From NCBI GenBank assembly GCA_965649765.1, contig OZ287754.1:41788001-41852000 (forward strand): a DNA stretch of 64,000 nucleotides, written 5' to 3'. The translations under genes and the position numbers were made by a program. Shown piece by piece: positions 8,701 through 62,773 of the stretch. The notes beneath the pieces were generated by a model that was not told the DNA's origin, did no database searches, and saw only the letters and a list, made by a program, of their open reading frames with translations. Position 1 is the first letter of the stretch. Every line of letters starts with the position of its first letter. This DNA is from Bispira polyomma. Taxonomy: Eukaryota.

Positions 8701-8887
8701 TCAGTGCATTGTTGGTGCCACAAGCTAGAGTAATGTGTATATCTAAAGGCTTTTTAGAGTTGTCATAATCTTTAAAACACTCCTCTTGTATGTTCAAAGA
8801 AAGGCAGCTTGCTGTGACATTGTTGTAACTGCAATATATACAGCACAACATACAAAATATTATTATCCTTGTCATTTTGACAAACAT
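5781..8887 (-). CDS. Receptor paralog A: signal peptide, SUEL-like 12-Cys domain, TM, NPxY/Tyr-rich tail; exons 8887-8410, 6647-6575, 6309-5781 (~359 aa)
   Basis: GT/AG junctions in phases 1 and 2; total 1080 nt, in frame; TM AVVGLAVAVPISLMVGIIGTVLYF; tail has DNPYY and GHYVYTYGHFALEGR; close paralog of B. The TM acceptor is inferred to be shifted by 9 nt. Confidence 0.72.
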
Positions 8888-9849: not shown

Positions 9850-11127
9850 CCCTTTGTCTCAAGTCTAAGGCTCAAAATGTCCATAAGTGTAAACATAATG
9901 CCCTCCTCTAGTGTCATCTACAGCCATTTTATAAGCAACACAAGTTGAGATTTCCTTTATTTTCTCACCGCCACCACTAGCGCATTCTGTATTCCGTTAT
10001 ATTTTCATTATTGCATCAACTTCTTTACCTTCGTAATATGGATTCTCTTCCAGTTTTATATGTTCATGGTAATCACATCTAATTTTGACAGTTGGCCATA
10101 GCATGAGTATTGTTAATTCCCAACCATGCCATTTGTTGCTTTGACAACTGCATTAGAGTTCTGCCTTTCAGAATGTGCCGCATCATGTCTTCTAACTTAT
10201 TTCATGCTTTTCAGGGAAATTTGAGACAGATAAAGAGCCCTCCAGTGTTTTCGTATTGGAGCTTAATCATTGGTCCACAGTATTTTTAAAAAGAAAATGA
10301 ATCATTATTTCCCCAAAAAGATAATAGTGTGACACATATATTGTTAGTTAAAGATATGTCAGCCAACAAATTAACATAAACCCCTTGACGACTTTGTCCA
10401 TCGCTAGCAGTCAATGGATAAGTTTATTCGCCAGTGCCATATGTCTGTCGGACATCAGTTGACAGTATAAAATATAACCATATAGCCATAGGAATAAAAT
10501 TCATTTGGGTACACTGTATTTGACGTTAAGAAAATTTGTGTCATTAATGATGTAAATAGTTGTTGCAAAAACGTCACCAAAGTGTAGCATTTTTCCTTGG
10601 TATTGTTGAATTGCTCTCCATCGGAGTTGAAGGGGCCAAGAACATTATAGCATTTGTTATTGAAGCCAGTACTTTTGTGTAGATCATTGTATTTCCTGAA
10701 TACATGGTGGCCCTCTGTCATTGGGTCTTATCCCTTGTGACAGGCAAAAGAGCCTCGACAGTTACCGGTGTTGGTATGCTCTACCTGGGTAGTCACAAAA
10801 AGGATAATTAGTGATTTGAATATCAGATTATAGGTTAATAAATGTGATGATTATAAATTTGAATTTAATAACATACATCTACTAATTGTATGTTGGTGAC
10901 TGACACAAATTTTAGTGTAGATTGCATCTTGCTGGCTTAAAAAATGAGAAAAAGAATTTTGCTGATTTTTTTCTGATTTATTCGTTTAGTAGTTGGTATA
11001 TAACAATGACAAGCTATCGACCATATATTAGGTAAGTATACTTTTACTCACCTCATCAATACCAAAGTACAAATTATTCCAGTCAACAAGCTCACTGGTA
11101 TCATTACAATTAAAGAAGCAGTTAACT
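9850..11127 (-). pseudogene. Receptor pseudogene C: 3' part of a D-type gene (TM exon 11127-11052 plus decayed tail exon ~10283-9850)
   Basis: TM exon intact and very similar to D; tail acceptor AG changed to AA; frameshifting deletion near the exon start; ends GHYVYTYGHFEP*; no ectodomain exon found upstream. Confidence 0.75.
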
Positions 11128-11497
11128 CTAAAATGAAATGAATAGTAAAACATGTCTTTTGACAGCAACATCATGGAAATTGAGGGGAAATTAATAATTT
11201 AATGATGGCTGTCTGATTACTGGGATACTATTCAATATAACAGTAAACCCCTAAGCATTGAACTACAATAGATAGCATGGCTTCCTTGACAAAACGTAAC
11301 CATTAAAATAGGAATCACAAATAAATCAGCTGGTCATGTGCACACAATCTATTTAATAAATTAATCAATCTTACGAACATGCCTGCTTGCCAATCATAAT
11401 AAGGGTATTAATAATCCCTACACCACAAAATAGAGGATTACATTTTCAGTTAATATAGGCTTAGATAGCTTGTAATTTGTGTTTCATACTTTGCTAA

Positions 11498-22500: not shown

Positions 22501-25500
22501 GTAATGATATAAGTACTGAAGGTAACGGGGTTACCAAGGGTAACTATCAATTACATAATGACAATTATAAAAGTAATAATCAAAGTCACGGTGGCATAAG
22601 TTCCTTGGCTACTGTGTCCATTTGTAACTGGATGAATCAAGGTATTCACAATGTAAATAATATTGTCTATCTAAATGTGCATGATTGTCCCAGGGCTTCC
22701 GGTTTCTGTTACCCAAATTTTGGTGCTGATGGTTCTTACCAATTTAATGCTTGTGGGCAAGTCCCTGACTCCTATTTGGAGATCATATCAACTATAGAGA
22801 TAAAGGTCTATATTGATCCAACATACTGGGCTTACAACTAGTACACTTTAGAACAAAGGCAGCATGCCAATAATGTCCATTACTATCATAACAGAGACCT
22901 GGAATGGAATGGCACTTATGGCTGTGATTATACGCAGCACGTTGAAAAACTTATTGATGGTATAATTGATAGAGATGATTCCACTGGGGATAATAATAAT
23001 GCACCCATGCTGGAAACTGACAGTGAACCTGACAGTGCAAGAATCACACCCGTCCGCTCTTCTGACAAACAAGCTGACTGGTCAGGTGACCAGGACAGCG
23101 AATATTTCACTAGTTTGATCAAACATGGCAAAAGGCATACTTCACTTACTGATAACAAGGCCACTGATATTCATGATAATGCAAAGGCTTTCTTAAGCTA
23201 TCAAATGTGGATTTTGAATTTACTGGCCCAGATAAGGAACCTTTGAGTATCACTACTGTTGACAAAATGCTAGAAATAACTGAAATTATTAGAAACACAG
23301 GTGTTCCCAATTTTAGGGCTGCCAGAATTCCTTTAAGTTATGGCCTCAACATTAAGGCTTGGGAAAACATACTTACAGATCATCACAACAAAATACTATT
23401 ACAGTACCTCAAGTTTGGGTTTCCTCTGTCTCTGGAAAATCCTCAACTACTGCATAACAACAACTTGAACAATCACCACTCTGCTACACAATACCCTCAA
23501 GAGGTGTTTAAGTATCTTGAAAAGGAAAAGTCTAAGGGTGCCATATTGGGCCCAGTTACCCAGATAACAGATAACCATTATCATACTTCTCCCTTGTTAA
23601 CCAAACCAAGACATTGACAAGTGTAGAATTATTTTCAATTTATTTTATCCTCATGACCTCTCAGTTCACAGTCAGGAACTAAGTTTGCCCTCAGGTTTCC
23701 TACCATAGATCACATTACTGAGGCAATTAGAAACACCAATGAACCAGTTATGTTCAAAACGGACGTTTCTAGGGCCTTTAGGAACCTCAGGGTTGACCCT
23801 GTTGACGCGGTGAAGTTAGGCATAAATTGGGACAATAAATCATATGTCGACGCTGCCGTGGCTTTTGGCTGGGCCCACGACAGTGCATCTTTTCAGCGCT
23901 GTTCAAACATTATAGCCGATTACATGAAGGATCAAGGGTTCACATTGTTCTGTTACATTGACGACTATGCATGTATTTGCAATAGAGAAAAGGCCAGTAA
24001 GGGTTATGACCTTCTTCATGACATACTTCTGAAGCTTGGTCTCCCCATCAACCAAGAAAAATCAGTTCTTCCTGGTACGTTTACAACTTTCCTAGGCATA
24101 GACATAGACATTCAGGAGGGCATTATTAGCATTAATCAAGACAAGATTGATTCTATTTACCATGAGCTTCAGGCCACTGTTCAAAAATCCTGGTTATTAC
24201 GAACAAAATATCAATCTATGGTAGGGAAACTCCTATGTGTGCATAAGTGTGTCTGCCCTGCCAGAATCATTATAAACAGACTATTAGCTGTGTTTAGGGA
24301 TAACCCTCAAGCCAAACGCTTTAAGGTTACACACAATATAAGACAAAATATTGCTTGGTTCTTATCTTTTCTTCCTATGTACAATGGCATCACATATATT
24401 ACACCCAAGGACATTCAACATATGCAAGAATTCCACTTAGATGCTTGTCTGACAGGCTTTGACGGCATTTGGGATAAGGAAGTATATGCCACCCCTATAT
24501 ACAACATTTACAACAAAACTCTGGCCATCACACAGCTAGAAATGTTGAACATCATTATAGCTTTGAGGTTATGGAGTAAAAACTGGGCCCACCAGAGAGT
24601 CACAGTATGGTGTGACAACCTGGCCGTGGTGTTAGTTGTTGACACTGGTAAAACTAGGGATTCCTTTCTTGCCATATGCATTAGAAACATATGGCTTTTA
24701 GCTTCTACCTTTGACATAACATTGAACATAAAACATCTTAGGGGTAAGAAAAACATTAAGGCGGATGCTTTATCCCACATTCACTCTGCCAATTCCCCCA
24801 ATGCAGATATAATGAGAGAACTAAACACTTATTCATGGAGACACATACCTGTAGAGTTCTTTAACTTAAATTATGTTATATAACTACAGGTGCAGCACCA
24901 TCAACCTTACCTTTGGCTCTGGCAGCAGTTCAACGACTAGATGCTGCTTTGAGGCCATCTACAAACAGTGCATATATCTCACAGTTCAAGACTTATTTAG
25001 GGTTTTTGCATTATTCAGGCCTGCAGCAGGTCTCAGTACATTCTATCCTGGCTTTTCTGGAGTACCTTACCCAGCACAATATTTCCCCAAGGTAATGAAT
25101 AATTATGTTACTGCTCTCAAGTTTATGTTCTCTAAATATAATCTAAACACACAGGTGTTAACCCACAAGTAGCTGTCAATGTTCCTTAGGAGCCTGGCAC
25201 TCTCATCAAACTTCAAGCCTCAGAAAAAGGGGATCTTTGATCTAGTGATGCTTCAAAATATCTCAAGAACTTGTTCAATACTCAATGACCCAATTTTATA
25301 CAGGGCCATCTTTCTAGTTTCTTTTTCCGGTTTCTTAAGGATGTCAAATATCGCCCCCCATTCCAGGAGTAGGTTTGACCCTACAAGACACTTCCTGAGG
25401 CAAGATGTAGTGTTTGGCCGACCAGGGGCCCATCTCATTCTCAAGTGGGCTAAGAACATGCAGAATAGGACTGATACTCATGTAGTTTAATTACCCATTC

Positions 25501-27291
25501 TACAGAACAAGGCACTTTGCCCTGTTTCTGCTCTCACAAAACTCTTGCAATCTAGGGACTTGTCCGCCACTGCTCCCTTGTTCGTATGTTTTTCCCCTCC
25601 CTACCACATAATTATTGACTCTCATATTAGATCAGCACTCAAGAGTGTATTACAACATTTAGGTATTGACCATACTTACCATGATTTCCATACCTTCCGT
25701 AGGTTGGGGGCTTCACTGGCATTTAACAACAACGTGTCATTGCAGCACATAATGTCCCACGGCCTTTGGCGCAGCTCGGCCATTTAGGCCTACCTTCAGC
25801 ACTTCTCCTCACAAGCTGCAGTCATCCCTACCACTTTTGCATCCATTATTCCCTCTGCCCTCTAGTTTGGGTTTGGGTATATTTTAAAATTTTACAAGTT
25901 AAATTTTAAACTACTTTTTACCTACCTCTATATAGAACTAACCTGTACAGACTAAACTTCTCCAAACAATATAACATTTATATTTGACCTACTACTTACT
26001 TCAAGGTCAACTTATACTCACTTGGGAACTGTGCACATCACGACCCAATAGGGGTCTGATAGTTCAGTTTCTAAACCCCCTCCTTCTTATTCTAACACTA
26101 CCTTAAATAGCTTAGGTATCCTCTCCTTTCTTCTCTCTATCCCTTTGTGGCATCCAATTAGGGGCCTCTCTGCTTTGACTTATTTATCCCCCTTTCCACC
26201 ATATTGAATTAAATTCCCACTTTTCTTCCCCTACTTCCCTCCATTCTTGGGAACTGATTTTATAAAAACAAAGCATACAAAACATCTTTCTGTTTAGAAG
26301 AGTGTAACTTAAATGTTTTTCTAAAATTATCCGTGTTTTATGCTTCTTTTAAAAAAAGAATTCATTCAAAATAATGTTGATGTTATCCTTTTTCTATTCA
26401 TGCAGAATACTTCAGTATTGATCCCTTTTTGGTATATGAATTATTTCACGTTTGTGAAGCATGTACTTTGAAAATATTACCTATTTTAGTTATAATTTTA
26501 CACACTGCTATATGTATTGAATGTCTCAAGATACCTATTAAAACGATACGTAAAATATATGAAATAGTATATAATTAAAATATATGTAATTCTTTACTAA
26601 TTCTACTTATGAAAATGTAAATATGTTATCCATAAATCAAGTTTAAGACAAAAAAGAAAAAGTTGTGCAATTGCTGAGAAGGTCGAGGACACATAACGTG
26701 GTTCTCGGCGATCGTTCTATGCGTTTACGTCACTAAAGCCTTAATTTTTTAATATATCTTTACACCTTTACTTTACATGTATACAGCAAAAATCAGCTTA
26801 CTGTATTGGCCAGTTGTATTGCAGACATATTTGATTTTCACCGTTCTACTCCAGCAACTATAAAAGGCTGAAAGCAAACATTTACTGCTGCATGTCCCCA
26901 TATTTTTGATGGGTAGTGTTATCGTGCAACTGTTTTTGCCTTTGCATTTAGAGTTGGCAGTTAAAAGAGTATTTTGTGTCTCACGGATGGCACACATATA
27001 ATGTTCTTTGAAACTGTGGCAGCATTCTGGTTCCTTCCTGTCAACGCAGCTTGAATCTCCAGCCTCTCTGGGTCTTAAGTACACTATTTCCTCTATGTAT
27101 TCTATCAGCGAATTGTTGGTGTCACAAGAAAACATAGTAAGGTTTATATTTAAAGGCCTAGAGTCCTCATAATCATTAAAACATTCCTCTCGTATGTGCA
27201 AAGAAAGGTAGCTTGCCCTGACAGTGTTGTAACTGCAATATATACAGCACAAAATACAAAATATTATTATCCTTGTCATTTTGACAAACAT
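16591..27291 (-). CDS. Receptor paralog B; exons 27291-26802, 19006-18890, 17406-17325, 17161-16591 (~419 aa)
   Basis: Canonical junctions (A|gtaagc, aacag|AT, G|gtaaca, ttcag|TT, CA|gtaagt, gacag|A); 1260 nt in frame; Ser/Thr stalk exon; TM VSVVGLAVAVPISLIVGIMGTLLYF; DNPYY and GHYVYTYGHF motifs. Confidence 0.8.
17490..18357. mobile_element. Kolobok-like non-autonomous element, second copy
   Basis: ggtatagtaacgtaaac...ttacgttactaaaacc TIRs; colinear with 20364-20758 plus 26257-26740. Confidence 0.7.
18405..18635 (+). mobile_element. tRNA-derived SINE; related copies at ~3236-3450 (+), ~7715-7940 (-), ~20030-20220 (-), ~42870-43055 (+)
   Basis: gggtttgaatctc B-box; shared gtatgtgggaaagttg...cagtggt...cctccacca core. 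Confidence 0.65.
21058..22135 (+). pseudogene. gag-like ORF of the Ngaro element (frameshift and stops), with C-terminal Cys/His cluster
   Basis: ORFs 21058-21261 and 21141-21833; WPNEG and LTLPQW motifs shared with the other copies; CKF..C..YICSYC..H..C downstream. Confidence 0.7.
23207..24883 (+). pseudogene. Reverse transcriptase / RNase H of the Ngaro element
   Basis: KTDVSRAFRNL, AFGW, YIDD, FLGIDID, DACLTG, LEMLN, WCDN, NIKADALS motifs; broken between 23617 and 23750. Confidence 0.9.
24890..25865 (+). pseudogene. Tyrosine recombinase of the Ngaro element (frameshifts and stops)
   Basis: FSGFLRMSN, LKWAKN, CPV, HTFRRLGA, HGLWRSSAI*AY: the R..K..HxxR..H/W..Y catalytic signature. Confidence 0.88.
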
Positions 27292-31800: not shown

Positions 31801-31969
31801 AAAATAATCAAGTGAACATTTACCATAATAGCATTCTTTCAAGGTATTATACACATACTGTGCAGCTGTCTTATAGATGCGCGAAGAAATATATTTAAGT
31901 AATCATGAACCAAAATGGTTCGACGAGCGCACTTGTGTACACCCACAGGTTATAACATAATCTATTTTA

Positions 31970-35683: not shown

Positions 35684-38600
35684 TTACCTTTCTCTTCCCT
35701 CAAGTTGAAAATGTCCATAAGTGTACACATAATTCCCTCCTCTGGTGTCATTTACAGCCGTTTTATCTGCCACAGACTTGGAGATTCTCTCCATTTTGTC
35801 ACTGCAATCATAAAAAGGATTATCCTCAAGAAAAGCACCTAGATTGTCAATACAAGCATCACAAATGGGAACATTTTGTGTTGCTTTATATTTCCCTTCT
35901 TCTGGATCCACATCTTTACCTGCGTAATATGGATTCTCTTCCAGTTTTGTATGATCGTGGTTGATGGTCTTGGTCATCACATTTGTTTTTGATGGTTGGC
36001 CATAGCATGAGTACTCTTGGTTTTCAACCATGGCATCGGTTACGTTAACAACCATATTGGAGTTCTGTACATGAGAATGTGCCGCATCATGTCCTCTGTT
36101 TGTAGTTGGCACAACATCAATATCTGCATATTGGTCTCCCATTCCAGAAATTACTTCATGATTTTCAGAGGATTTTGAGATAGATGACGAGGCCATTGGT
36201 GTTTTCATATTGGAGCTTGTGTGCTTTTTAATTTCTGGTGCACAGTATCTATATAAAATTAAAAAAAATAATCATCATTTCCAAAATGTAATTTCCTAAT
36301 TTATTGAAATTAAAATTAAACTGTGTACTGACAGATATATTGTTAGTATATATTGTGCCATAAAACAAATAAACCTGAAAAACATTGTAGCATTTGTTAT
36401 TGAAGCCAGAACTTTTGTGTAGTTCATAGAATCTCATTAATACATGGTGGCTCTCTGTCATTGGGTCCTACACCCAGTAACAGGCTGAAGAGCTCTGACA
36501 GTTTCCGGTGCTGTTATGCTCTACCTCGGTAGTCATGAAAAGGTTAATTAGTGCTTCAAATATCTAATTAAAGGTTGATACATGTTCTGAATATAAATTT
36601 GAATGCAATACAGTTACCACTTGTACGTTGGCGACAGACACAAATTTGCATGTAGATTGTATTTTGCTGGTTTAAAAAATGAATATTGCTAATTCATTTG
36701 TTTACTAGTTGGTATATAACAATGACAAACTATCAACCACATATTAGGTGATTATACTTTCACTTACCTCAAAAATACCAGAGTAACAATTATTCCAGTC
36801 AACAAGCTCACCGGTATCATTACAACTAAAGCAGCAGCTAACCCTAAAATGAAATGATAGTAAAACTAATATAATAGGTTACTGACAGCACCAGCATGGA
36901 ACTACCTCAGAATAATGATTTAGGAAATTTCTGGGGTTTTTTTGGTATTAAACAGGAAATTACTTAGAAAGAGAAAAAACACATGCTTATTGTAACTGGG
37001 TGGCAGGTAATCCCTTTTGTCAAATAAGAAAGATCAGTATCTGACTCAGAATGTCTATGCATAGGAATTGTTGATCGACAAAATCTGCCACATGCACACA
37101 AAGGTGACATTGACATTTTTTATAGATAAGACCAGGGAAGCAACTGACAATATAATAGTTATGGAGGACTTGTTTTTGACTGTATCTTGGGTAACCATGT
37201 ACTGGCGGATACAAAATGGCTCGAATAACAAATGGCCACTTAATGCTGGTGTCTTCTGTCATTTGGATCCTGTCTCCAGAAGCAGGCTACAGAACCTTTG
37301 TGGCCTTGATGAATGTTCATCCTCAAGCCTGTTTCTTCAGTTAGGATATGACATATTCTTATCACCTATTAAAGCATATTTTACTTCCTTGTATGTTGTT
37401 AAAATGATCACACTCTGCCATTAATTCAAGACACTTGGATTCATCAGTTAAAAGGTTACTTTATTATGTGGTTTTATATTCGTTCTTGCCTTTTTGGCCT
37501 GAAACTTTTTCATGGGTAATTTATACAAATTTGAGATTTTCCCCATATAATTTTTTTTGTACACATTCATGTGGCAAATTAATTACTTTCTTCTTGCTTT
37601 GCTAATTTGACAAGTCTGAAGTGGTATTCACGTTTTGAATAAATACTTCAGTGCTCTGATCTTTAAGCCCCATGACCAATCTGTTTAATGATACACTTGC
37701 TTCGAAATTGTATCTGACCATCAAACAATTTATATTTCTTGTCTAAAAACAAGTATCTTCCATAATATCACTTGTCAGCTGATATAACAGTCACTGGTGC
37801 TGGTTAGTTGAACTTGGGCAATCCAGAAATGGTTAATTAGCACTTTGAATACCAGATGATTATATAGGAAGATAAATGAGTGTAAATTTGAATATAATAC
37901 AACAATACGAGGCATTAGACAAAGGGGTTTGCATTCAATTGAACTGTAAACAAAGACATATAATTGATATTTATTCTGGGTTAGCAAGTTTAAAAGTAGA
38001 GCTTTCTATTTCATTTTTTATTCCAATCCAGGTTAATACGATCGGTTATAAAATGATCGTAATAGTTCTACCTGAAAAAATATTACGGTAATTCAAGCAT
38101 TATTAATGCAGTGCGTACTATTAGAATTATTCATGTTCAATCTCTTAATCTGAGACTTTTATTTTATGAAATATTATTTTTACCAAACATCACAAAGATA
38201 TTAGCCTCAATCTATTAATACTTATTTTATTATTACCTGTATTTTTACAAGACAGTTGATCATCTTCACTATCAACTGTCACTGTTTCTGTTTTGAATAA
38301 AACATAGCACCATATCATTCAGATATAATATGTACTATATACAAGACATAAAATATATGTGAGGGCTAAATTGTTTAATGTAGCCAGAACTTGCAGACAC
38401 TATCATTCATATATCAATATACCATATTCTAAAGCAAATTCTAATATAGCAATTGTAGCAATGACAATTTAATTGTACCTTTACAATGGTGTTATGTTAA
38501 TTATTGCCATAAATAGATATATTTTTACATGTTTATGGTTGATTTATTCTTAGATGTACTTTAATGAGAATAATACTAAAAAAGCAGTCCCTACCACTTC

Positions 38601-40924
38601 CAAATTAAGAATAACAAATCTATGAGGGTATATATGTGTGTATTTATAAAATGTATGTGTAAAATTGTGTAAAATATCAGTTCTATACTACTGGCTATGT
38701 ACATTTTTTGGTAAAGAATACAATAATAAAAGGTTACAACATTTAATACTCAAGCTGAGGTCACATGCTTATTTTCCAGTTTAAGTTTATGGTTATACCT
38801 TATTTAACTTTAAGTTTTAACTTAAAGGCAATTTTGAGTTTAAATTTAAGTTGCTCTTAAACTAATGACGAAACACCTGAACAAAGACGTTTAAGGTGAC
38901 CCTAACTTGAGTGGTCACCAAAGTTAACTTAAACTGTGCCAGTTTAAGGTTACCTAACCCACAAGTGTGGATTTTGAATTTAAGATGCCAATGTTTTAAT
39001 ACTCAGTTGACCTAAACTTTTCCAATGGTTTATAATTTTTGACAAATGATACATGAAGACAGCCTCAGTTAAAATACCGATGACTATAAAATTACTTGTT
39101 TTCTACTTTAAAAACAAAGATCCAGTAAAGAGGTGCATTGTCATACCACTTATAGTGTTTAAGCAAATTCCTTACTAACAACCTTGTACAATAATTAGAT
39201 GCGATTCAAGACATAACATAATTTCCAATTGAGCTCATACCTTTTAAATGTCTTCTGTTTGAGCATAGGATTACGATGTACACCTCAATTATACGTATCT
39301 TACACTAACCTACTCCAAGGGAATAGGGTGGTAAGAAATTAGAAGTTCCTGCCACACTTGCCTGAACTTATTTACTAATAAGTCTAGTCCCTAGTTCGAC
39401 TCCCGCCAATGCCATATGAACACACAACACAAAATGGCCATGTTGTTTGACTATCTCTTCTTGACTTTGATGAGTGTCTTAATATCTATTGTAGTGCTGT
39501 ATAATTAGTTTATTTGGGTTAACGGTGCCTTCAACACATTTTGTGTCATATAACAATGGGAAGTTCACTGTGAAGAAATGAGAACTGGGTAGTTGGTAAT
39601 GATTTTTCTGCACCACAAAACACTGGTCTTCAATAAGTCTACTGCTACACACACATGGAACCACATAATTACAGAGGTGGGATGCAAGTGTGTTAACGTT
39701 ACACCACCAAAGCCCCCGGAAGCGCTTTAGAAGTTTAACACATCAGGCAAGACTAAGTGCATTCAGGAGTGATACCTCTTTAAGCAAGCGTTGTCTGCTT
39801 TAAAAGGGGGTTCCACACTCAGGATTTGGTTCCCGACCTTCCCAACTTTGTGATCGATAACAGGAAAAACGGCAAAACATATAGGTCGGGGGCCAAAAAC
39901 GAGGTGATCGGGAAGGTTGGGAAGAATATAAGAAAAGTTTGATATTTTGTAAAAGTGTCCCGACTTGTGTCCACGACCTCTAAAAACGGGAAGGTCGGCT
40001 TTGGCGAATAAGTTCGATCCTATTGGTGATACGTTTTGTCTGTTAGGTCTTATTATCACTCCTGGCATGTCCTAACGCTGGCCCGTCGAAACGTAAAAGT
40101 CGGGGGCAAAAACGGGGTGGTCGGGAGGAATTTATGTATGAAGACGCATATAAAAGCCCATTTTGTCAGTCTCGATAACGTAAATCAGTTTAAAACTTGT
40201 TTACCTTTGCGACATCAAATCGACTTGAAAATCAGGCCCATTTTGCCGATCAAACTTGAATGTGGAACACCCCTTTAGGTTTGACTCAGTAAACATGCAC
40301 CTTCCTTATGAACCGTATTGTGTACATAGAACTGTTATTAGCCATTAACTCCTTAGGGGATGCCTGGACATCAATTTGGCATTAAATTGAAATTATTTAT
40401 TACAATAACTATAGTAAATCAAAAATAATAATCTCACCACATACTGCCTCTTCTTTATAGCAAACATATTTAACCTTCACCTGCCTGCTCCAGCAGGAGT
40501 TCCTTTGAATGTTACACCATGTTCTGCATTGACTCATATGAAATCCACTTATAGTCAGATTACAGCTACCTGCCTCTTTACACTGATCAGTCATATTTAG
40601 AAACAATTTGTCACTCTGATCAAACATCACAAGACATATGTCATTGTGTTTAAAGTTACAGCATTCCGTATCACCGGGTGTCCCACCTGAGCAGTCCCAG
40701 TCTCCAGGAAATGATGGCCTGATAAAGGCTATTTCAAGTATAGTTATCCAATTAGCAGAGCCACATGTTATATCTACATTTATGTCCTCTGGTTGATTAT
40801 CTTTATATGTATTAAAACAACCACCATATGTTATGTAAGTTAGGTTGTATGCTGTGTTTCTGTTTATATAGTATAGTGCAAGTATTGCTATTGATGACAA
40901 ACTTCTGTGTTTAACCAAATGCAT
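35684..40924 (-). CDS. Receptor paralog D; exons 40924-40438, 38287-38237, 36843-36768, 36248-35684 (~392 aa)
   Basis: Canonical GT/AG junctions, phases 1,1,2; 1179 nt in frame; TM LAAALVVMIPVSLLTGIIVTLVFL; tail has ENPYY, DNPFY and GNYVYTYGHFQLEGR. Confidence 0.8.
39804..40274. mobile_element. Harbinger-like MITE in intron 1 of gene D
   Basis: agggggttccacactcagg...cttgaatgtggaacacccct TIRs; TAA/TTA flanks. Confidence 0.65.
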
Positions 40925-43084: not shown

Positions 43085-46000
43085 CTATGTCACATCTCTT
43101 TGTCTGCCCTCCAGGCCAAAATATCCATAGGTATACATGTAATTCCCCCCTCTGTCAGTTGGCTGATTCACCTTGTCACCTTGATCCTCTTCCTTGTTAT
43201 GATCCCCGCTTTCATAATATGGGTTTTCCTCCAAGACAACTTTTTGGTCTTCAAGTTTATTGGCAAGCGAAGTATGCCTCAATTTGTCTAATACTTTATC
43301 ATTATCGTCTGAGCCTTCGTAATATGAATTTTCTTTAAGTGTCAGCTCATTCTTAGTTTCATCTTTTCTGAATTGTCTATCTAGTTGAGAATCTCCAGTG
43401 GTAATTTGTGGATTTAAATGATTCTTTTCTACATTGATGTCATCATACTGATCTTTATTATAGTCTAAACTGTTTTGCTGAACCTTAAAAGGTTTGTTAC
43501 CACTGTTTGTAGCATTGCCATCTCTATCTGATAAACAACACCTAAAATGAAATGCATTAATTTTAATGTCTGGATATTTGTGTACTTTAGAACATCAAAA
43601 GGTTTACAATTGACCTGTAAAGACTTGATAGATGGGGATTTGGGTGATTCCTCTTTTGTTAAATCACATCAGGGTTGGTATTTGCAAAGATTACTTTATT
43701 TACATTGTCACAATGAATTTGATTGTCTCAAATATTGTTTTAAGGAATCTGATTTGTTAAGACTATGCAAGCTCTAAGAACTGTATTCTAATGATACACT
43801 TTTAACCTCGATTGTTCATTTTTTTTCTGTGGTAAGAGATATGTTGGTCATGGATCTCCAGACACCCTTATATCCCCACATAGCGGGTTAAGAAGATTAA
43901 GTCACCCTAGCCAAAGTTTATATTTGAAAGAACCTGCTATAAAAAAGAAGGACATTCGGCAGGTAGTCGGTGAGCTGATTTGAAACTTGGGTCATTCAGT
44001 AGCCAAGTTGGGCGGGTAACAATCAACTTCAGCCAGTTTCTCCCATGGCCCAAGATCTAAAGAACTCACCGTATGATCAGTAAAGTGCCCGCAATTCCAG
44101 CTAGTAAACACACAGGAACTGCAACTCCCAACGCTATGATTATTCCTACACGTAGAGTATTTGTAATAAAAGTAATATTTACCTGGGAAAATATTATTTG
44201 ATTGGATGAGATTAAGGTGAATTAAATATTTTATTCTGTTTTTAACAAATTTTATATTTGTCTTAGTAGTAGTTTGTAAAATAAAAATTGTTATATTTTG
44301 TTTTTCTTTAGTGATACTTAACTTTCACATGGAACCTGATTTATAAAGTTCTCATTTATTGTTTATATTAAATTTCTATACTATTGCTACAATCGATGTT
44401 CCGGCATCTTATGTGGTACATATGCAAATCACTATCCAAAAAGAGTAGTCTGATAGAATGAAATGGTATGCCAGAACCTTGACTTGATACAGATCGATTT
44501 TTAATATTTTTTGCAATTCTATAATTTTTGTTTCAGTGAATATACTGACAGGGAGATTATTCCATTCAGAAAGTGCTATGACAATAAGATTAATTATCTA
44601 GAAGCTGTTAGTTCTAGGGCAACAAGTAAGAGGTGGAGAGACTATATTTCCTCAGGTGGGATTGCTAAGTAATCATCCTTTATGAATATATTAGGATATT
44701 TGTTTTAAATTTAATGTAGAGCTAGGTTGGTGGCCTGTGTAGCTTTTGACACAGACAGGTCATATGTGAGCATCGGCCAACTTGATTCTGCAATGATTAT
44801 TCTTTCTTTTTACAGCTTGTTTATTTTCACTTTGTTAATACCATATGGTAGAGAATTACAGTAGTTAAGTCAGCTTATAATCAATGTATTAGCAACTACA
44901 ACAGCATTTAACAAATGTGAATTGATTTAAACTTCTTCTTATTGACACCGAAATACAAACGCTGCCAAACAAAATAAGGAAGTCTATAAAACGTTATAAC
45001 AAAAGATATATGGATTTACACCTTTTCGAAAGTGGCCCCATTGGCACATAATTTTGGGTTAATACATATATTTATAAAATAACCTTATTTTCAATCCTTC
45101 CATTACAAGTTTCTAAATAAAATTCCTAATTGCAACCATAATTAATATAATTGGAATATTAGAGATAGCCCGTTATGCAACTATTGCAGATTATTTGACA
45201 CTATTGAACAGCATCTATATTACTGCAAAGATTCCAATGTCTTTCAGGGGAAACAAATACGTGGATCAACAAGGTCATGAACAGTGAGAATTGTGAATAT
45301 TCTGTCTGTGAAATTTAATTAGGGGTAACTGTATCTGTATAATACTGGAAAACCTCCTAATAAAGTAACTCTCCCAGGAAGAGAGTGTGTGATGGTAATT
45401 TTTTGGTGTATATTGACTTTTAGTCGTGCTTTTAACTGATCAAAAGAGACACTATTGTCTATTTCGCCATTGAGGTTATTCCACAATGGTATTGTTTGTG
45501 AGAAGAATGAAAATTTGTAGGCGTCACAGTTTGATCCAATAGTTCTCTACTGCAGATTGTGTTTCTTTCAGGTAGAGGTATATGGCCACTCCAGGTGCTC
45601 TTTTCTGCCTACTGCTACTGTTATATTTACAATTTTGAAAAAATAACGAATTTGAATTTGGATATTTAACGTCCACTCTAGTACCTTTTAGTAGGTTATA
45701 TTGGGATGGGTAGTTGGAAATGCTGGAGGAAACACTGCATACAGTCGGTCAAGGTTCTGCAGAGAAACCAGCGGCCCACAGTAAGGAACTACCACCTTTC
45801 CCACATAGGCATCGACGGGATCCAAACTCACGCCGCCCAGAGGTGAAAGACCAGTGATTGTGAAGCGCAATGCTTGCTAACCAATAGGCCACTGCAGCCC
45901 CCCTTGAAAAAATAACGAGACTGGTTATATGGGTATATAGGTATATGAACAACTAAACAACTGCCCCTACCTGTTTGACTGTTTTTGCTTTTGTCTGTAG

Positions 46001-47395
46001 CATTCTCTGCTTCTAGAGTTGATTCTGGAGGGTGGAATCAATTACATATTTAGAAAAAGTATGGTTGTAATTGTATTGTTTATTTGTTGTATTTTATTCA
46101 AATTTATACTCATTTATCTACCTTCATCTCATATTCAAAGTACTAATATTTAAAGCACTAATTATTTTCTTGACTGCTAACCAGCAACCATAAAGTAGCA
46201 TTTCCCTAAATAAAGAGAGAGGCTTGTGGATTGCCATTACCTTACCGTCCCCAAGGTTATTAACCCTGCAACTGGGAATAGGACAAAATGTCCAAAAACT
46301 GCTACTTAAGGGGGTCATCCAAGCCACTATTCATATGCCTTTACATGGTCACCCTATGCTGGGATTGAGCTCATGTCCTTTGTGTTCCTAAGCGAGTGTT
46401 TTACCCACTGAGACACAGTGGTATATAATGGTAGTAATAATTTAATGGACTCATTTAGACTTGTTATGTCTATAGCTTTTTTTCTGTAATAAAGGTCCAT
46501 CGTTAAGTAAGGTCCCCCCCATTTAAAGAAAATTTTGTATCACTTAATACCAATGTTTCAGGTACCATACTAAAATAGAATGGAAAACACATCTCTTTCA
46601 GGCAGTGTTGAAATTAGTAATAATATGATTTGTCTTCAATAATTTAATTATAATGTAGATCAGCATCTGCATTTTATTGGCCTTACGGTTATACAAACAG
46701 TAATTTTGAGGGTAGTTTAGTTGTGTTATACATATTACTATGATCTTTAACAATATGTTACAGCGCCACATATCAACATTGTTTTCTTTAATAATAGCCT
46801 CCCTTTTGGAAAACGCAAAGCACTGTATATAAGGCTACATGATATTGTGTTACTAAATATATTTTAATGTTAATGATTTTGTTACAACTTGTAACTTACC
46901 AGTTCTCTTGTAGCATGTGTAGGTTACTTTAGCCGTTCTGGCCCAACAGGATCCATCAAAGCCACTGGCCTTACAAGAAACTCGAATTTTACAGTCATTC
47001 ATATGCAATGGGCTTATGGTTAACAGACACTCCTCCTTTTCTTTGCAAGTATCAGTAGCATTTATAGCTAATGTATCATTTGCCTGGTAAGACAATAAAC
47101 ATACGGCATTGTATTCAAAGCTACAGCATCTGGTGTCAGACTCATTTATACAAACCTTGTCTCCCATACCATATGGTCTGATATATGTCACCTCAAGTAT
47201 ATGGACCATATCTGAAGGCTCACATGACAATGTAAGGTTGATATCCCTCGGCGGTGCTGTGTGTTTAGTTGTAGAATCCCAAAAACAGCCTTGCACTGTC
47301 CCACCAACTGTAGTTAACCTCATGACTTGGCTGTGAATATATATCAGAAAAAAACCTATACCAAACCAGTGCCGGTTTATGTTGGAAATAAACAT
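43085..47395 (-). CDS. Receptor paralog E; exons 47395-46900, 46024-45971, 44145-44070, 43541-43085 (~360 aa)
   Basis: Canonical junctions, phases 1,1,2; 1083 nt in frame; TM IIIALGVAVPVCLLAGIAGTLLII; tail has ENSYY, ENPYY and GNYMYTYGYFGLEGR. Confidence 0.8.
45400..45634 (-). mobile_element. CR1/L2-group LINE ORF2 C-terminal fragment
   Basis: Translates to CDAYKFSFFSQTIPLWNNL, typical of the ORF2 C-terminus. Confidence 0.6.
45650..45903 (-). mobile_element. tRNA-derived SINE with 15-bp TSD
   Basis: TSD ttgaaaaaataacga at 45635-45649 and 45904-45918; A-box-like tggcctattgg, B-box-like gagtttggatcc; caaatt repeat tail. Confidence 0.8.
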
Positions 47396-52810: not shown

Positions 52811-55800
52811 TCAAAGTACACTGCCATTGGTGTCCTTTGTCAGTTCTCTGTGCCTTCCTTCAAGTCTAAAATGTCCATATGTGTACACATAATTCCCCTC
52901 TCTGTCCTTATCACTAGACTGTTTATTCTTGTTATTTTCTGTTTCCAGTTCAAGGTCATCAGCGCCATCATAATATGGATTATCAGACAGTTCTACCTCT
53001 TCTCCTGTGATTTCTGTTCTGTTTTTATTTCCTGCCTGTTCAAGGTCATCAGCGCCATCATAGTAAGGATTATCAGACAGTTCTACAGCTTCTCCTCTGA
53101 CTACTGTTCCGGTACCTTTCGCTGGTTTTTCAATCTCCTCATGAGCGGCCTCTTTCAGATCTCCAAAACCTTCATAATATGGATTTTCATTCAGATCTTC
53201 TTTTTCTTCTTCTGCCATGGTTGGCATACAGTAGGTGTCATCATCAAGCTCAGAATCTTTGCTTGTTTCTTCTATTCCAGCACCTTTCTTTGGTTCTTCA
53301 AGTTCCTCATGCACTGGTTGCTGGGATTCTCCCAAACCTTCGTAATAAGGATTTTTACTTAGCTCTCTTACATTGATGGATTCTTTCTTTAAACTTGGTT
53401 TACATGCATCCTCCTGCAGTATAGTATACTCTCCCTTTGTGTTTGGTTGGTCCACTTGTTTAGGAGAACAATAATCATTTGTCTTTGGATCCGCATCATC
53501 ATACATATTATCTGTAGAAGTTCTCATCATATTTGTTTCAGCATGGTTACTTGTTCTATATATTGACGAGTGACACTTGTTTTTGGCTGGTGATGAGGCA
53601 TATCTAAAAAGTTATTATCATCAGTACAGAAGTTTATAATGAACAGAACTAACAATGACGTGTGTTTTTTTATTCCATATTTTTAGTTAAACGTTTTACT
53701 AGAGTGTGCTTATATATATTTGTATTTGGAAACAATAACAATGGTTATAGTTTGAAATATTTTAATAAAACTAAAAAAACTATAATGAAATGACTGAATC
53801 TGTTCTTTAACACTACATGCATCACTACTTTACCTAGACAAACCATAGCTAATTCATTCTTACCTGGAATAAAGAATATGTGAGATTACCCCTCCAAAAA
53901 AACTGATAGGAATCAACACCGCCAAAATGACTGCAACAACTGAAACACACAATACATTGCTTTAATTATTTCAATCTCCGAATATTTAATTTTATGAACT
54001 CAGTTTCATTCTTTTCATGTCTTATTCCAAATTGTCTCCAAATTAAATCCAAATTTTTTTACCGACCCACTCTGATAATGTGATCCAGATTATCACCCTC
54101 ACAAAGTTTTGATAATGGCGCTAAATTCTAAAAATAAACTTAATGTCAGCTGGCCAAGAACTTAGATTAAACAGACTATAGGATGCTAGACACTTTTAAT
54201 TTCTGGCAATAACCATAATTATGTTATTTACCATTACAAATTTATTTTCTATAAGCTTAAGATTTCTTTGAAAACCTTTAAAAAGAATTGATTACCTAAA
54301 TACTGGCTACTAGATGCCTGTTTTAAATCTTCACATGCTGCTTGTCCTTTGGCTGTAGGATTTTCACTGGCACTGACTGTAGTTGTAGCTGGCAAAACTG
54401 CTGAAACACAGGAAACTACAAGTTTATTTACAGTGATTTTCACTAAGAAACAGTAGTATCATGGTATCCCACCTAAATCACTAGATGTAAATCTAGGTAT
54501 TAAACAGCAGTGGAACATCAACCACAGTTCTATGCTCAAAAGTACGTATGTACAGCACAAACTATAAATCATGAACACCAAGGCTTTTGACTAGCAGATG
54601 ACGGCATTTGTTGAATGCTGAAGTAGTCTTTAAGCAACTCCAGTTGTCTGTAACCTATTACTGAAAATTGTTCTTCAGTTCCCAGCAATAGTTTTATCTT
54701 GGGATCAAAAGGGTAAGTAGTTTTGGTAGTCTTAGGCATATGAGGGTTTTTATATCAGTGCCAACCTTGGGTTCCAGAATCCATTATTTTGACATCACTA
54801 TCTGAAGTTAGGCTTTAAGATTACAAATAAGTACATCTTTTTACCAAAAAAGATGCAATTTTGGACTTCGTCTACTGCTATAGACCATTCAGGGGTCACT
54901 GGTTGTGTCTGATGCATTATGGTTAAAGCTTGCCCCTTATTTTGCATACAATGGTTAATTAATTTTGTAACTAATCTAAAGGTGTGTCTTTTTAACATAC
55001 AGTACTTAAAGCAGTAATAGTTAATTATTATAAGAACAGCTGACAGGGGTCTTCAAAATTTAGCATCTCAATGTTCAAAAATACCAGAATATAAAAAAGT
55101 TCTAGACTTTTTTGGTATTGACTGGACCTTTGTCCAGAATTTAGAGCAGACATATGCAGAGCTGTCATAAATTAGGAACCATAAAAAGATCTATCAGCCA
55201 ACGTAAAATGTCACCACAGTCAACGTCACAATTAACATGTGGATGACATCAGATAATATACCATTTCTTTACGTCACAAACTTGGAGGGTCTTTCCCACA
55301 TTGTCACGGAGATATTAGCTTTGCCAGGTATTTCTCGTATAATCTCAAATGCCTAAGTCTCCATGCACACATCCCTCACAATTAAAAAAACAAAAGGGGG
55401 GTCTATTATTAAATAATTTACTTAACATATTAATCTTGTTTCCTTAACAAGTAACAGATAATTTCATGACAAGTACATATTGGAACTATATTGTTTATTC
55501 TCATAATTCAAAACGGTATCTGTGAGGGATTGGTTAGCCTGCAAAACGATGGCGTTGTGAGGATGTGTGTGTTTCCACACCTCAAAGCCTAGTGAACAGG
55601 TAGTTTCAAGTATAATATATAATACATGTGATAATACAATACCATTTACCACAAAGTTCATGTCTTATGTCACTATGTATTGGATAAAATATAACTTTTA
55701 CCTGTTGTTGGTCTTCCTGGTGTTTCTGTATTCCTACTGTTGGTGATTTCCCTAGTCATTTCACTGGATGCTGAAGTAATCTTCGTGGAAGGCATTGTTG

Positions 55801-57543
55801 ACAATGTAACTGTGGTTGTGTTTGTCGTTGCTTCAGTTGTTGATGATGCTGTGCTTTGGGCCATTCTAGTTGTGGGGCATTCTGTATAGAAGTATAGTAC
55901 AACCTCTATTATCTGAACCTCAGTTATCCGAATACTCAATTTATGAACCCATTTTTATTTCTAGAAAAATAATGATTTCTCACTGTTTTATACAGAACTG
56001 CCTCTTCTATTTTATGAATCATCACTTATGCAAACAAAATGTTGCTGTCCCAACATTTTCAGACAATAGAGGTTTTGCAATTGTGACACTTTTTACTGCA
56101 GCATTTTTGTTGAGTGACAAACTTTTCCTAGATATTATTATTATATTTATTGGTTCACATAGCTTAAATATTTTCTTTCCGAAACCTGCCCAACATTAAT
56201 ACCAAGCAAGCTATACCAATTTGGTTGGCAGTAAGAGTTATACCCATGTTAAACCCATTCATTAAATTTTCACGAATAAATATATCCTTTAAATAAGCAA
56301 AAACCAAACCAAGACACAGGATGGCAGAAGGAAAAGAATGGCTCCCAGGTCTTATAGGACATTAAAACTCAGTTCTTACCACACTGTGGACAATCACTTG
56401 AAGTACTTGTAGTACAGGGATTCTCAGTATGGGGGGTTGGCGGCTCTGAACGGTCACAAGCTACAAAAATAAGAAATGTTCACATAGCTATGGACCCTTG
56501 CTTAAGGTAACAATACTTGTTTTGATTATATACAAGACCTGCCAATATAACTGATAGGTATTTTTTTAACAAATATATCTAAGTAGATTTCACTGTTTAT
56601 AATAGTTCAACTTTTAAAAAACAAACAAAAGTAGTATAAATACTCTTAAATGTGGTTTAACTATGACAAAGCTGTGCTAATTAAGTAGACTTAACCCTAT
56701 GCAAAAGTCTCACACATTATTGCTTGTATAATCATATTGGATGTTTTGTGTTTGTATTTGATATATATCTAAATGCAATATTTACTCACTGAATCTGTGC
56801 CTAAAAAGTAACAGGAACAAGTACAACATTTTATCACTACCATTTTCTTTGTAAAGCTACGAGTTAAAGATATGTACAGTAGTTTTCATTGAAGTTTATC
56901 TCAGATACCAGTGCATATTGATTTGTATTCAAAAGTTACTTTGGCCTTGTTGACCAATTTGAAATTGATATTTTCCTGGTATAATTGTTATGGTAATGTA
57001 ATTAGTTGAATGTAATTTAACATTCGATTTCTTACAATCGTTCCTACAGAGGTAGTTCAACTGTAGTAATCTTGCCCAACACCATAGATTGTTTTTATTG
57101 TTCGTCTTGCAGTCCTTCTGACAGTCTTTGTCTAATTGTACTGACCCCATTTCTGTTGTACAAGTTGTTTGATTCTGGCAATTATTTATGATTTTCATGA
57201 TTGTTGTAAACTTTAGTGAAACTATACATTTTCTGATGATACTGTCCTCTTGTTCCCAGCTACCTGCATCACAACATTGATTATATGTAGTGGCTTCAGC
57301 ACAAGGCTGGTCACTCCTCAGACGTGGTCTTATATAGAATCCATTGATGACATCGATTATAGAATCCTGGCAGTTTAGGGTTATGTTTATAGTACCTTGT
57401 GGCTTTCTGGAAGTTTCCGTCCAAAAACATTGTGTCTTAGACTTGTATTCTAGCAAGTCTGCATGTAACAAAGATTTAAGAAAACATATTCCAATAATTT
57501 GTGTTTTTATCCAATAAAAAACTTGTTTACCAGTAGGATACAT
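52811..57543 (-). CDS. Receptor paralog F with long mucin-like stalk; exons 57543-57036, 56460-56380, 55881-55702, 54400-54296, 53939-53864, 53603-52811 (~580 aa)
   Basis: Canonical junctions; stalk exons of 81, 180 and 105 nt all phase 1-1; Thr/Ser-rich exon; TM VVAVILAVLIPISFFGGVISHILY; four NPYY motifs and GNYVYTYGHFRLEGR; 1743 nt in frame. Confidence 0.8.
55892..56085. mobile_element. Tc1/mariner-pogo-like MITE; related fragment at ~1120-1278
   Basis: agtacaacctctattatctgaa...ttcagacaatagaggtt TIRs. Confidence 0.55.
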
Positions 57544-60499: not shown

Positions 60500-62773
60500 C
60501 TTAATCTCTTATTCAGCGATAACTGTGTCGTCATAGTATGTGTCATCATTAAGCTCAGCATCTATGCTTGGATCTTCTGTTCTAGTCTTTCTTTGGTTCT
60601 TCAAGTACTTCTGGTTGCTTGGATTCACCAAAATTTTCATAATATGGATTTTCATTTGGTTCTTCTGCATTGATGGATTCTCCCTTCAAACCTGGTCTGC
60701 ATGCAACTTCCTGCAGCATGGTATACTCTTGTTTTTTGTTTGGTTGGTCCACTTGTTCAGGATGCTGATAATCATTTGTCTTCGAATCAACATCATCATC
60801 CATGTCTTTTGTAGAAGTTCTCACCATATTTGTTTCAACATGGTGACTTATTCCATATGTTGACGAGCGACATTTGTTTTTAGTTGATGATGAAGCCCAT
60901 CTAAAAAGTCATTATACATTAGTTTATAATCAAAATATTTAAAAAACTAACAATGATGGGTTTTTTATTACATGTGTATGTGTACATTACAGTTGGCTTA
61001 TATACTTTGTATTGTAATTGGAGAAAATAACAATTATAGTTAAATATTTTAATAAAACTGAAAATAAAATCACTCAATCTGTTGTTTAACACTACCGGCA
61101 TTACTACTTTATCATAAACCATGGACGAACAATAATAGCTTAGTTCTCAACTCGAAAAAACAATATGCGAGATTACTCCTCCAAGGAAGCTGATAGGAAT
61201 CAACACCGCCAGAATGACTGTAATAACTGGAACACACAAAACAACGCTTTATTAATTATCTCATTATCCAAATATTTTATTTTTTAAACATAGTTTTGCT
61301 CTTATTTATATGTCTTTTATTCCAAATTAGTATCCTAAATGTAAGTTGGCTTATCACTTATATTTACTGGACTATTGGATGTCAGTCACTTTAATTTCAG
61401 GAAACAACCATGATTATGTTATTATGTTATTTATTTGTGACTATAAGCTTAACATTTCTGTGAAAACACTTAAATATAAAGTAAATATGAAATAGTTAAT
61501 GTGAGAGAGAGACATCAATGAAATAAATAAAAAATAAAATTACATTAAAAATATGTAATACAATACAATACTGCAAAGCTGAAAATAATTTCTTGAATAT
61601 TTAATTGGATCTATAATGTTTGGATTCATTCATTTAAAATTGTGTATATAATTTGCAAACATAGTGGAATATCTTGTTTAACAATGCCTTGCACTGTCCC
61701 TGATTGCACTATTGGATTGTATACTGACAATCTTTGACTTTCTGCAAAACTATTAGATTGTATACTGACAGTGTTTGACTTTCTGCAAAACTATTAGATT
61801 GTATACTGACAATCTTTGACTTTCTGCAAAACTATGATATTGTTTACTGAAAATGCTTGGAGAGATTATTCATGATGCCAACCAAACATGAAAATATAAT
61901 AAGACAATTGTTTAACACATTTAAAATGGAAATAAGGTGGCAGCCAATTAGATTGCTTTCTATTACAAACAATAACAAATGCACATGTGAAAACTGATTC
62001 ATCCTGCCCAGTACTTTTTTCTGTTAATCTTTCCACTGGCCACTGATGTGAAAAATGCTTCTGCTCGTTTAAATCAAAGGTACCGCAGATATATTAGTAA
62101 ATTTGTTTTCGAAAACAGGTCCAAAATCAATTCCAAGAATACAAAACCCATGCTAAACCTATTTATTAAATAGGTCAAATATATGTGAAGTATATTTCCT
62201 TTGAATGAACAAAAACCCTTTTAATGTTAGTAGTTAAGGCGGTTTTTCAAAATAGGTCTAAAATCAATCCCAAACAAGCCATACCCTTAATAAACATAAG
62301 TTTTAAAGTTAATGAAGATGATATGCAATGCTTTTTCTCTAAATTAGTGGAAACTTTTTCTACATATGTAGGTATGGCAGCCATGTTGTTTTTAAAATGT
62401 TGTTGTTTTCCAAAACAGGCCTAAAATCAATTATGAACATACTATACCCATGCTGACCATATGTTTATAATTTCCTTTAAATAAGCAGAAACAGAAATCA
62501 ATCCTAAGCAAGCTATACCCATTTGGTTGGCAGCAAGCGCTATACCTATGCTTAACCCATTCATCAAATTTTATGAATATATATCTAATGTACTTTTCCT
62601 ATAAATGAGTAAAAACCAAACTAGGAACCGAAATAGTAGAATAAAAAGGAATAGGTCCCAGGTAACAGGGGACATTTCAACACAATCCTTACCACATTGT
62701 GGACTGTCACTTGAAGTACATATAAGCCAAGAATCCTCAGTGTGGGGGGTTGGTGTCTCACAAGGGTCAGAGG
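60500..62773 (-). pseudogene. Receptor pseudogene G (F-type): exon 62773-62693, TM exon 61226-61151, truncated tail exon 60900-60582
   Basis: Exons homologous to F; TM donor GT changed to TT; premature TAG at 60582; homology ends ~60500 so the C-terminal motif is lost; 180 and 105 nt stalk exons not found; ectodomain exon not in the window. Confidence 0.7.
61709..61853. repeat. 41-bp tandem repeat, ~3.5 copies
   Basis: ctattagattgtatactgacaatctttgactttctgcaaaa. Confidence 0.85.

Follow-up and report, generated by a model that had tools for sequence, protein, structure and literature searches.

A conserved C-terminal tyrosine motif, and candidate phosphotyrosine docking site, in predicted SUEL-fold receptors of Bispira polyomma

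The window analysed here, a stretch of 64,000 nucleotides from Bispira polyomma (NCBI GenBank assembly GCA_965649765.1, contig OZ287754.1, positions 41,788,001 to 41,852,000 of the forward strand), contains a cluster of predicted single-pass receptor genes on the minus strand, and our subject is the short tyrosine motif with which their cytoplasmic tails end. Five loci (A, B, D, E and F) form open models with GT-AG introns, of 359, 380, 375, 360 and 580 residues, respectively. Each model begins with an exon that has a hydrophobic start (a predicted signal peptide) and a cysteine-rich domain. Between zero and three Ser/Thr-rich stalk exons come next, then a transmembrane exon whose donor is of phase 2, and lastly a single exon that carries both the acidic tail and the motif. 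It should be noted that the models are predictions from DNA, and that some small stalk exons have possibly been missed.

The gene F motif reads G-N-Y-V-Y-T-Y-G-H-F-R-L-E-G-R-H-R in frame on the minus strand (52897-52847), with a stop codon that ends at 52811; the whole of the frame end (52811-52900, minus strand) reads DREGNYVYTYGHFRLEGRHRELTKDTNGSVL and then stops. The window has six copies, every one of them on the minus strand (Table 1). Five of them close the last exon of the open models, gene E having the variant YMYTYGYF, and the sixth, in pseudogene C, is frameshifted after YGHF. The minus-strand reading and the open GT-AG models bear out an earlier sequence-only reading of this DNA, which had placed the motif at the C-terminus of A, B, D, E and F and partly in pseudogene C.

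Pattern searches combined with reading of the genomic context identified 21 intact copies of the motif across the genome, distributed over six contigs (two on C1, one each on C2 and C3, 12 on C7, the contig of the window, two on C8 and three on C10), and two broken copies, in pseudogene C and at C8:33123536. The second-half pattern, Y[GD]HFxΦEGR, matched 12 times in the genome against none for the reversed control, and the first-half pattern matched 13 times against seven, 12 of the 13 falling in two clusters on C7. Every intact copy lies 11-23 codons ahead of a stop (21/21), and upstream of each, in the same orientation, there is a SUEL-like exon; for the broken C8 copy, only a weak exon of this kind was seen (E 0.42). 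The family is varied in build: the member at C1:39843007-39855627 combines a tandem array of at least six SUEL-like exons with a repeat stalk, a transmembrane exon and a tail that bears the motif, and the loci at C8:53639942-53640799 and 53677919-53678563 have proline-rich tails with the motif variants YSNIY and YANPY, in which the first tyrosine reads YxN. At C5:2961492-2962304, a degenerate motif in register keeps Y-4, Y-2, T-1, Y0, R+8 and R+10 and has lost F, E and G.

Numbered from the last tyrosine (Y0), the columns of the 21 intact copies hold G at -6 (13 copies); Y at -4 (21); V at -3 (10); Y, N or D at -2 (16, 3 and 2); T, V, A, I or P at -1 (12, 5, 2, 1 and 1); Y at 0 (21); G, Q, D, A or E at +1 (15, 2, 2, 1 and 1); H or Y at +2 (20 and 1); F or I at +3 (20 and 1); L at +5 (13); E at +6 and G at +7 (21 each); R or K at +8 (20 and 1); and R or T at +10 (20 and 1). 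These counts are partly circular, since the search patterns prescribed columns 0, +2, +3, +6, +7 and +8, and the listing demanded Y-4. Two checks are free of this circularity: the first-half pattern does not include LEGR, yet all 11 of its 11 intact matches continue with LEGR, and patterns that do not require Y-4 nonetheless gave tail-like matches that carry it. The core of the motif is Y-x-[Y/N/D]-x-Y-x-H-F-x-x-E-G-R-x-R, and neither the middle tyrosine nor the leading G is invariant. The sequence-only reading had called the motif invariant, which is true of the C7 clade only, and its three alternating tyrosines are not the conserved core, which consists of two tyrosines four residues apart and H-F-x-x-E-G-R-x-R.

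One loose pattern gave 65 matches (38 in the control), comprising the 21 known copies and 44 others, and none of the 33 others inspected lay in a tail-like frame; another gave 47 (24 in the control), comprising the 21 family copies and 26 others, and none of the 22 inspected was tail-like. Among the pattern matches inspected in this genome, the motif was not found on any non-SUEL receptor.

We compared synonymous (pS) and non-synonymous (pN) differences over 13 codons in all 55 pairs formed by the 11 intact copies that lie in the two C7 clusters. Values of pS were 0.43-1.10 and of pN 0.03-0.15 in 52 pairs, and the recent duplicate pairs D/D', E/E' and F/F' had a pS of 0 in the motif codons. 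The 300 bases behind the stop were alignable in four pairs only (A/B, D/D', E/E' and F/F'; scores 142-538), the other 51 pairs scoring at background (15-27). The conservation of the motif therefore does not extend to synonymous sites or to the 3' flanks, and the claim of the sequence-only reading survived the gene-conversion test that had been proposed for it. In pseudogene C and at C8:33123536, the motif decays.

The motif also occurs outside this genome. A motif profile search returned four proteins among 3315 candidates, all of them unnamed ENA frames, from a second genome. The four frames end in NYVYTYGHFxLEGRxRE and have acidic tails with NPYY-type or NxxY-like sites; compared with the best partner retrieved here, each tail keeps 13-14 of 15 motif residues and 32-42% of the upstream tail. 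Three of the four, together with a twin of the fourth, lie on one contig of 1,325,100 bases, and four ectodomain matches, 33-46% identical to their best partners in B. polyomma, lie on a contig of the same size. The occurrence of motif frames and ectodomain matches on a like contig suggests a matching cluster in another species, and the second proposed test, for absence of the motif from orthologs, ended with its presence in the second genome. Judged from these sequence comparisons, the motif is under purifying selection, family-wide and across species.

The coordinates of the window features are collected in Table 1. No ectodomain exon was found for pseudogene C. Locus G has lost the splice donor behind its transmembrane exon, which its duplicate G' keeps along with the same short tail; G (window 60585-60908) and G' (C7:41906037) have the same frameshift, which cuts the tail short behind a single NPYY, and G' may code for a motif-less receptor. 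G' belongs to a duplication of the whole D-E-F-G block, approximately 42-57 kb further along the contig, as D', E', F' and G' (C7:41.865-41.909 Mb). An NPYY unit of approximately 28 residues is present in two copies in F and three in F'. At C7:41227411-41230448, a frameshifted copy in which an A-type ectodomain is followed by an F-type stalk end and transmembrane pieces is apparently a chimera. Immediately behind the transmembrane helix, A, B and E have Cys-Cys (window 6309, 17161 and 43541, minus strand), and D has one Cys nearby. We take Cys-Cys at this position to be a possible palmitoylation site, as in raft-targeted adaptors.

Table 1. Features of the receptor cluster in the window (window positions)
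Feature	Position	Strand	Remarks
C-terminal motif of gene F (GNYVYTYGHFRLEGRHR)	52847..52897	-	Y-4 codon start 52891; Y0 codon start 52879
Gene F last exon: acidic cytoplasmic tail, four NPYY, motif, stop	52811..53603	-	
Gene F NPYY sites	52970-52981, 53060-53071, 53174-53185, 53342-53353	-	
Gene F transmembrane exon (predicted)	53864..53939	-	
Gene F Ser/Thr-rich stalk (predicted)	54296..56460	-	Exons 56460-56380, 55881-55702, 54400-54296
Gene F first coding exon: predicted signal peptide and SUEL-fold ectodomain without YGR/DPC/KYL	57036..57543	-	
Gene E, 360 aa model	43085..47395	-	Motif 43141-43097
Gene D, 375 aa model	35684..40924	-	Motif 35731-35687
Gene B, 380 aa model	16591..27291	-	Motif 16665-16621
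Gene A, 359 aa model	5781..8887	-	Motif 5837-5793
Pseudogene C: D-like transmembrane exon, tail with stops and frameshifts	9865..11130	-	Motif remnant YVYTYGHF 9897-9874
Locus G: F-like stalk, transmembrane and tail pieces	60585..62773	-	Tail ends after one NPYY, no motif

Putative decayed retrotransposon frames lie at window 21100-25500 (plus strand), inside a long intron of gene B, and at 30200-34550 (minus strand); within the first, 23657-24880 is presumably reverse-transcriptase-like and 25173-25487 recombinase-like. The introns of gene F contain high-copy short repeats (53977-54060, 54470-55200 and 55896-56056) with read depths of up to several hundred times background, and a run of N at 57721-57909, just upstream of its first coding exon, would hide any 5' exon there.

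The tails have a second element in common. They repeat the sequence hydrophobic-x-[DE]-N-x-x-Y (for example MVENDQY and LEENPYY): [DE]NxxY occurs 36 times in the 21 tails and is present in 18 of them, against a mean of 2.6 and a maximum of 10 in 500 shuffles, and NxxY is repeated up to five times per tail. The sequence-only reading had described the tails as aligning poorly outside the motif; they share this element as well. Pfam gave no credible family for the window tails. Hydrophobic residues stand upstream of NxxY, as in PTB ligands, and NPxY binds PTB-domain proteins such as CED-6/GULP, Dab2, ARH and Numb (PMC8092387, PMC6912373).

The ectodomains are highly divergent. In an alignment of 16, Pfam SUEL_Lectin matched five members (best E 4e-4), no EMI or EGF family appeared among the Pfam matches, and the one match to PDB sequences was the rhamnose-binding lectin CSL3 (E 0.57). 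The best structural matches of an AlphaFold2 ectodomain model (pLDDT 84) were CSL3, latrophilin lectin domains and SUL-I, at middling Z scores of 6.2-5.6 (next unrelated row 3.8), the top ones, at 6.2-6.0, having an rmsd of 3.5-4.2 over 84-85 residues; the eight best are, by their titles, apparently all of SUEL type (Z 6.2-4.7), and Foldseek placed latrophilin lectin domains first (best E 0.022). It is the agreement of sequence and structure hints that carries our assignment of the modelled ectodomain to the alpha/beta SUEL-type fold with its conserved frame of cysteines. The motifs YGR, DPC and KYL mark rhamnose-binding lectins (PMC10817417). None of the three is present in any of 29 ectodomain pieces (29/29), most of which have [YF][ILVM]RP and CW[AS]R in their place, and canonical sugar binding is unlikely because of this absence.

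Ectodomains of the motif-bearing members are 13-31% identical to that of gene F, except for two close paralogues (61 and 63%), and their tree is poorly resolved (7/26 inner branches supported), so motif gains and losses are not ordered. An ectodomain profile found 38 proteins in 1.84 billion; 24 of the 25 looked up are unnamed, and one is a canonical tandem lectin of Saccoglossus. Word-indexed searches among longer proteins, with the F tail and with the ectodomain alignment, found nothing, which is weak evidence, and the ESM Atlas provided leads only (one unnamed cluster at 0.75 for the tail, SUEL-bearing clusters at 0.83-0.86 for the ectodomain). The family thus resembles SUEL/rhamnose-binding lectins (CSL3, SUL-I) and the latrophilin lectin domain in fold, but differs in lacking the three canonical motifs, in its extra cysteines and loops, and in its long acidic tyrosine tail with the C-terminal motif. 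EVA-1/EVA1C is likewise a SUEL-bearing single-pass receptor. It has a role as a Slit receptor (PMC3767613).

Comparison of the aligned ends with consensus sequences upheld the view that the motif is not an ITAM (the tyrosine-based activation motif of immunoreceptors), its inhibitory counterpart (ITIM) or a PDZ ligand. An ITAM has two YxxL/I units 6-12 residues apart, and is ruled out by the single YxxF, the position of the other conserved tyrosine four residues upstream, and the lack, in the aligned ends, of any further unit at the spacing of an ITAM. The ITIM consensus is [SIVL]xYxx[IVL], and that of the switch motif (ITSM) is TxYxx[VI]; both are ruled out at Y0 by Y, N or D at -2, by F at +3 in 20 of 21 copies and by a median percentile of 37 on the SHP2-C SH2 matrix described below. 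PDZ-binding motifs occupy the last 3-4 residues of a protein; here, Y0 lies well ahead of the stop and the last residues vary freely. An Akt site (RxRxxS/T) was dropped as its S/T is not conserved in the aligned copies, inspection of which also removed three other candidates, an arginine endoplasmic reticulum-retention signal, a Cbl TKB site and a STAT6 site. The PKC-delta C2 phosphotyrosine site is (V/I)-pY-(Q/R)-x-(Y/F), which F at +3 fits; +1 is Q in only 2 of 21 copies and G in 15. On its sequence, the element would be a tyrosine-based docking motif on a kinase-less receptor, outside the tested motif classes except for the loose YxxΦ.

We scored the tail tyrosines of 25 tails (21 from this genome and four from the other) with four matrices from PMC10065799, treating neighbouring tyrosines as Phe. 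The matrices describe human domains, only two of them are for SH2 domains, and E-G-R-x-R lies outside their reach. Median percentiles against random sequences, in the order c-Src kinase, Abl kinase, c-Src SH2 and SHP2-C SH2, were 88, 61, 12 and 37 for Y0; 83, 69, 36 and 77 for Y-2; 50, 63, 32 and 44 for Y-4; 92, 76, 74 and 9 for the NxxY tyrosines; and 66, 45, 56 and 33 for other tail tyrosines. The c-Src kinase percentile of Y0 was 90 or above in 11 of 25 tails, and G/D at +1 and F at +3 match SrcTide peptides. Substrate sites of Src-family kinases have a branched residue at -1, G/D/E/S/A at +1 and F at +3. As far as human matrices apply, Y0 would be a fair substrate for c-Src and would bind poorly to the SH2 domains of c-Src and SHP2-C. 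The c-Src kinase matrix penalises Tyr at -2 and His at +2 (-0.63); that this disfavoured His is nevertheless kept in 20 of 21 copies points to a reader rather than the kinase.

Our analysis directly supports the motif, its frame and terminal position, its purifying selection, its tie to SUEL-like ectodomains and its presence in a second genome. It is a linear motif, conserved at the protein level, which ends predicted kinase-less single-pass SUEL-fold receptors, and we consider the chances about even that it serves as a phosphotyrosine docking site for one shared reader. AlphaFold2 gave no confident fold for a 36-residue tail end (pLDDT 59), as expected of a linear motif. We hypothesize that a ligand would cluster the receptors, and that clustering would let a Src-family kinase phosphorylate Y0. 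One shared reader would then bind the extended Y-x-x-x-pY-x-H-F-x-x-E-G-R-x-R surface. In parallel, PTB-type adaptors would dock on the hydrophobic-x-[DE]-N-x-x-Y repeats further upstream, so that the tail would have two modules. Receptors that lack the motif would be decoys or would signal in some other way. What we infer in this scheme is that the receptors are expressed and have this topology, that they are phosphorylated and by which kinase, and that a reader of this nature exists.

A number of observations weigh against a docking site of this kind. The invariance of Y0, H, F, E, G and R among pattern-found members is partly circular. Of 20 loci counted by ectodomain (C7 clusters, C5, C9 and C10), 14 have the full motif, one (C5) the degenerate form, and five none, namely G', three loci at C7:36.84-36.86 Mb, and C9, for which the tail assignment is unsure. 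Y0 scores poorly on both SH2 matrices (12 and 37) and lacks the Asn at +2 that Grb2 ligands need, so no tested reader fits; to our knowledge, E-G-R-x-R is explained by no known phosphotyrosine reader. The Src-substrate score, obtained with human enzymes, is moderate, and is equalled or exceeded by that of the NxxY tyrosines (92). YxxF conforms as well to the consensus of AP-2, for which no phosphate is required. Finally, three read runs cover the introns evenly and without splice joints, which is the behaviour of genomic DNA, and are therefore silent on expression.

The 15 residues might instead bind an ankyrin-, armadillo- or FERM-type surface as a phosphate-independent scaffold or groove peptide, with phosphorylation, if any, switching binding off. 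Most SH2 ligands are shorter than this run of conserved residues (two Tyr, His, Phe, Glu, Gly and two Arg), which agrees with neither SH2 matrix, and the register of tyrosines and arginines kept by the C5 paralogue, despite its loss of F, E and G, indicates that spacing over 15 residues is constrained. Set against this, motif alignments matched no PDB chain sequence at E<=10, the tails abound in tyrosines flanked by acidic residues, as is typical of kinase substrates, and the look-alikes fail at their defining residues: the Gly that defines L1 FIGQY is not matched, and the cadherin juxtamembrane core needs GGGEED where GRxR stands here. We regard a groove peptide as unlikely.

Somewhat doubtful for other reasons, and also improbable, is a trafficking signal, in which Y-G-H-F acts as an AP-2 YxxΦ site alongside the NPxY repeats in endocytic or recycling receptors. 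All 21 copies conform to YxxΦ (F in 20, I in one), bearing in mind that this consensus is loose and that +3 was partly fixed by the search patterns, and the tails combine NPxY and YxxΦ, the two classic clathrin signals (PMC6912373). For such a signal, the residue at +2 is free and there is no requirement at -4, +6, +7, +8 or +10, and all of these positions are conserved here; most receptors vary the bulky residue that in this family is nearly always Phe.

If the motif were an ordinary SH2 site for the Src family, like YDYVHL of Cas or Y-x-Y of class III receptor kinases, its first tyrosine would be the one read and its middle tyrosine would supply a second phosphate. The spacing Y-x-Y-x-H-hydrophobic does resemble YDYVHL, the Src SH2 site of Cas (PMC5556061), and the median c-Src SH2 percentile of Y-4 is 72 in 10 dispersed members, rising to 90 when the neighbouring Tyr is scored as Glu. 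The corresponding values are 28 and 65 in the 11 members of the C7 clade, which include the window genes, and Y-2 (36) and Y0 (12) score low on the same matrix. A c-Src SH2 ligand has an acidic or small residue at +1 and I/V/L/M at +3, and by these scores the motif is not of that type. Cas is a cytosolic adaptor, its site is not known to have an EGRxR, and H-F-x-x-E-G-R-x-R would be left unexplained; this reading has little probability in our view. That gene conversion or recent duplication maintains a peptide without function can be taken as refuted: the cluster does hold recent duplicates with aligned 3' flanks (A/B, D/D', E/E' and F/F'), three with motif codons identical at synonymous sites, but copies from different subfamilies are close to saturation at synonymous sites and cannot be aligned in their flanks, and the motif is kept on six contigs and in another genome while decaying in pseudogenes.

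Returning to a phosphotyrosine docking site with a shared reader, the closest known design is that of CED-1/Draper/MEGF10, kinase-less single-pass receptors with a two-module tail of NPxY and a distal tyrosine site written by Src-family kinases (PMC8092387). Their ectodomains consist of EMI and EGF-like repeats where the present family has a SUEL fold, which argues against membership of that family, and their distal site is an ITAM or YxxL read by Syk/Shark, in contrast to the YxxF without an ITAM partner, the conserved EGRxR and the repeated NxxY found here. CDCP1, a single-pass Src substrate, has a site close to YGHF in its YGHL (Y743), which is phosphorylated and contributes to SHP2 binding in human (PMC4395315). 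We claim likeness of the sites and not homology: CDCP1 has a CUB ectodomain, and its YGHL, together with a YAVI nine residues upstream, makes up an SHP2 site resembling an ITAM, a pair absent here. The Biomphalaria PTC2/GRC clusters likewise are tandem clusters of highly divergent single-pass invertebrate genes, for which the abstract of PMC7494358 names no SUEL domain or shared tail motif. Between the two motif-bearing SUEL receptor genes on C1 lies a Toll-like receptor gene (C1:39832362-39834688; TIR E 2.6e-14), with ectodomain and TIR in two overlapping frames. The Biomphalaria analogy and this neighbour, and these two points alone, suggest an immune role.

The sequence-only reading had supposed that the motif may be undescribed, and a literature search agrees with it: among the papers listed for four literal strings, none describes such a motif in its title or the start of its abstract, with most subscription journals, bioRxiv supplements and ELM lying outside the search. 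Within the same limits, we found no paper describing a family of SUEL or rhamnose-lectin transmembrane receptors with tyrosine tails. More tentatively, and with less than even probability, the motif may represent a new class of receptor tyrosine motif, distinct from ITAM, ITIM, ITSM and hemITAM, in which a dedicated reader (for example, an SH2- or FERM-type domain that recognises two tyrosines four residues apart together with H-F-x-x-E-G-R-x-R) provides the common output of fast-evolving, variable SUEL-fold recognition receptors in an invertebrate lineage, the motif-less members being decoys or opposing receptors.

Signalling by variable invertebrate surface receptors is largely obscure because their tails look like unalignable disorder. 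Here, approximately twenty receptors with barely alignable ectodomains have in common one exact, synthesizable 15-mer, on six contigs and in a second genome. The motif bears on the question of invertebrate tyrosine motifs outside the ITAM/ITIM set and is a handle for family members that ectodomain searches miss, and this single 15-mer could lead to the downstream partner of the whole family.

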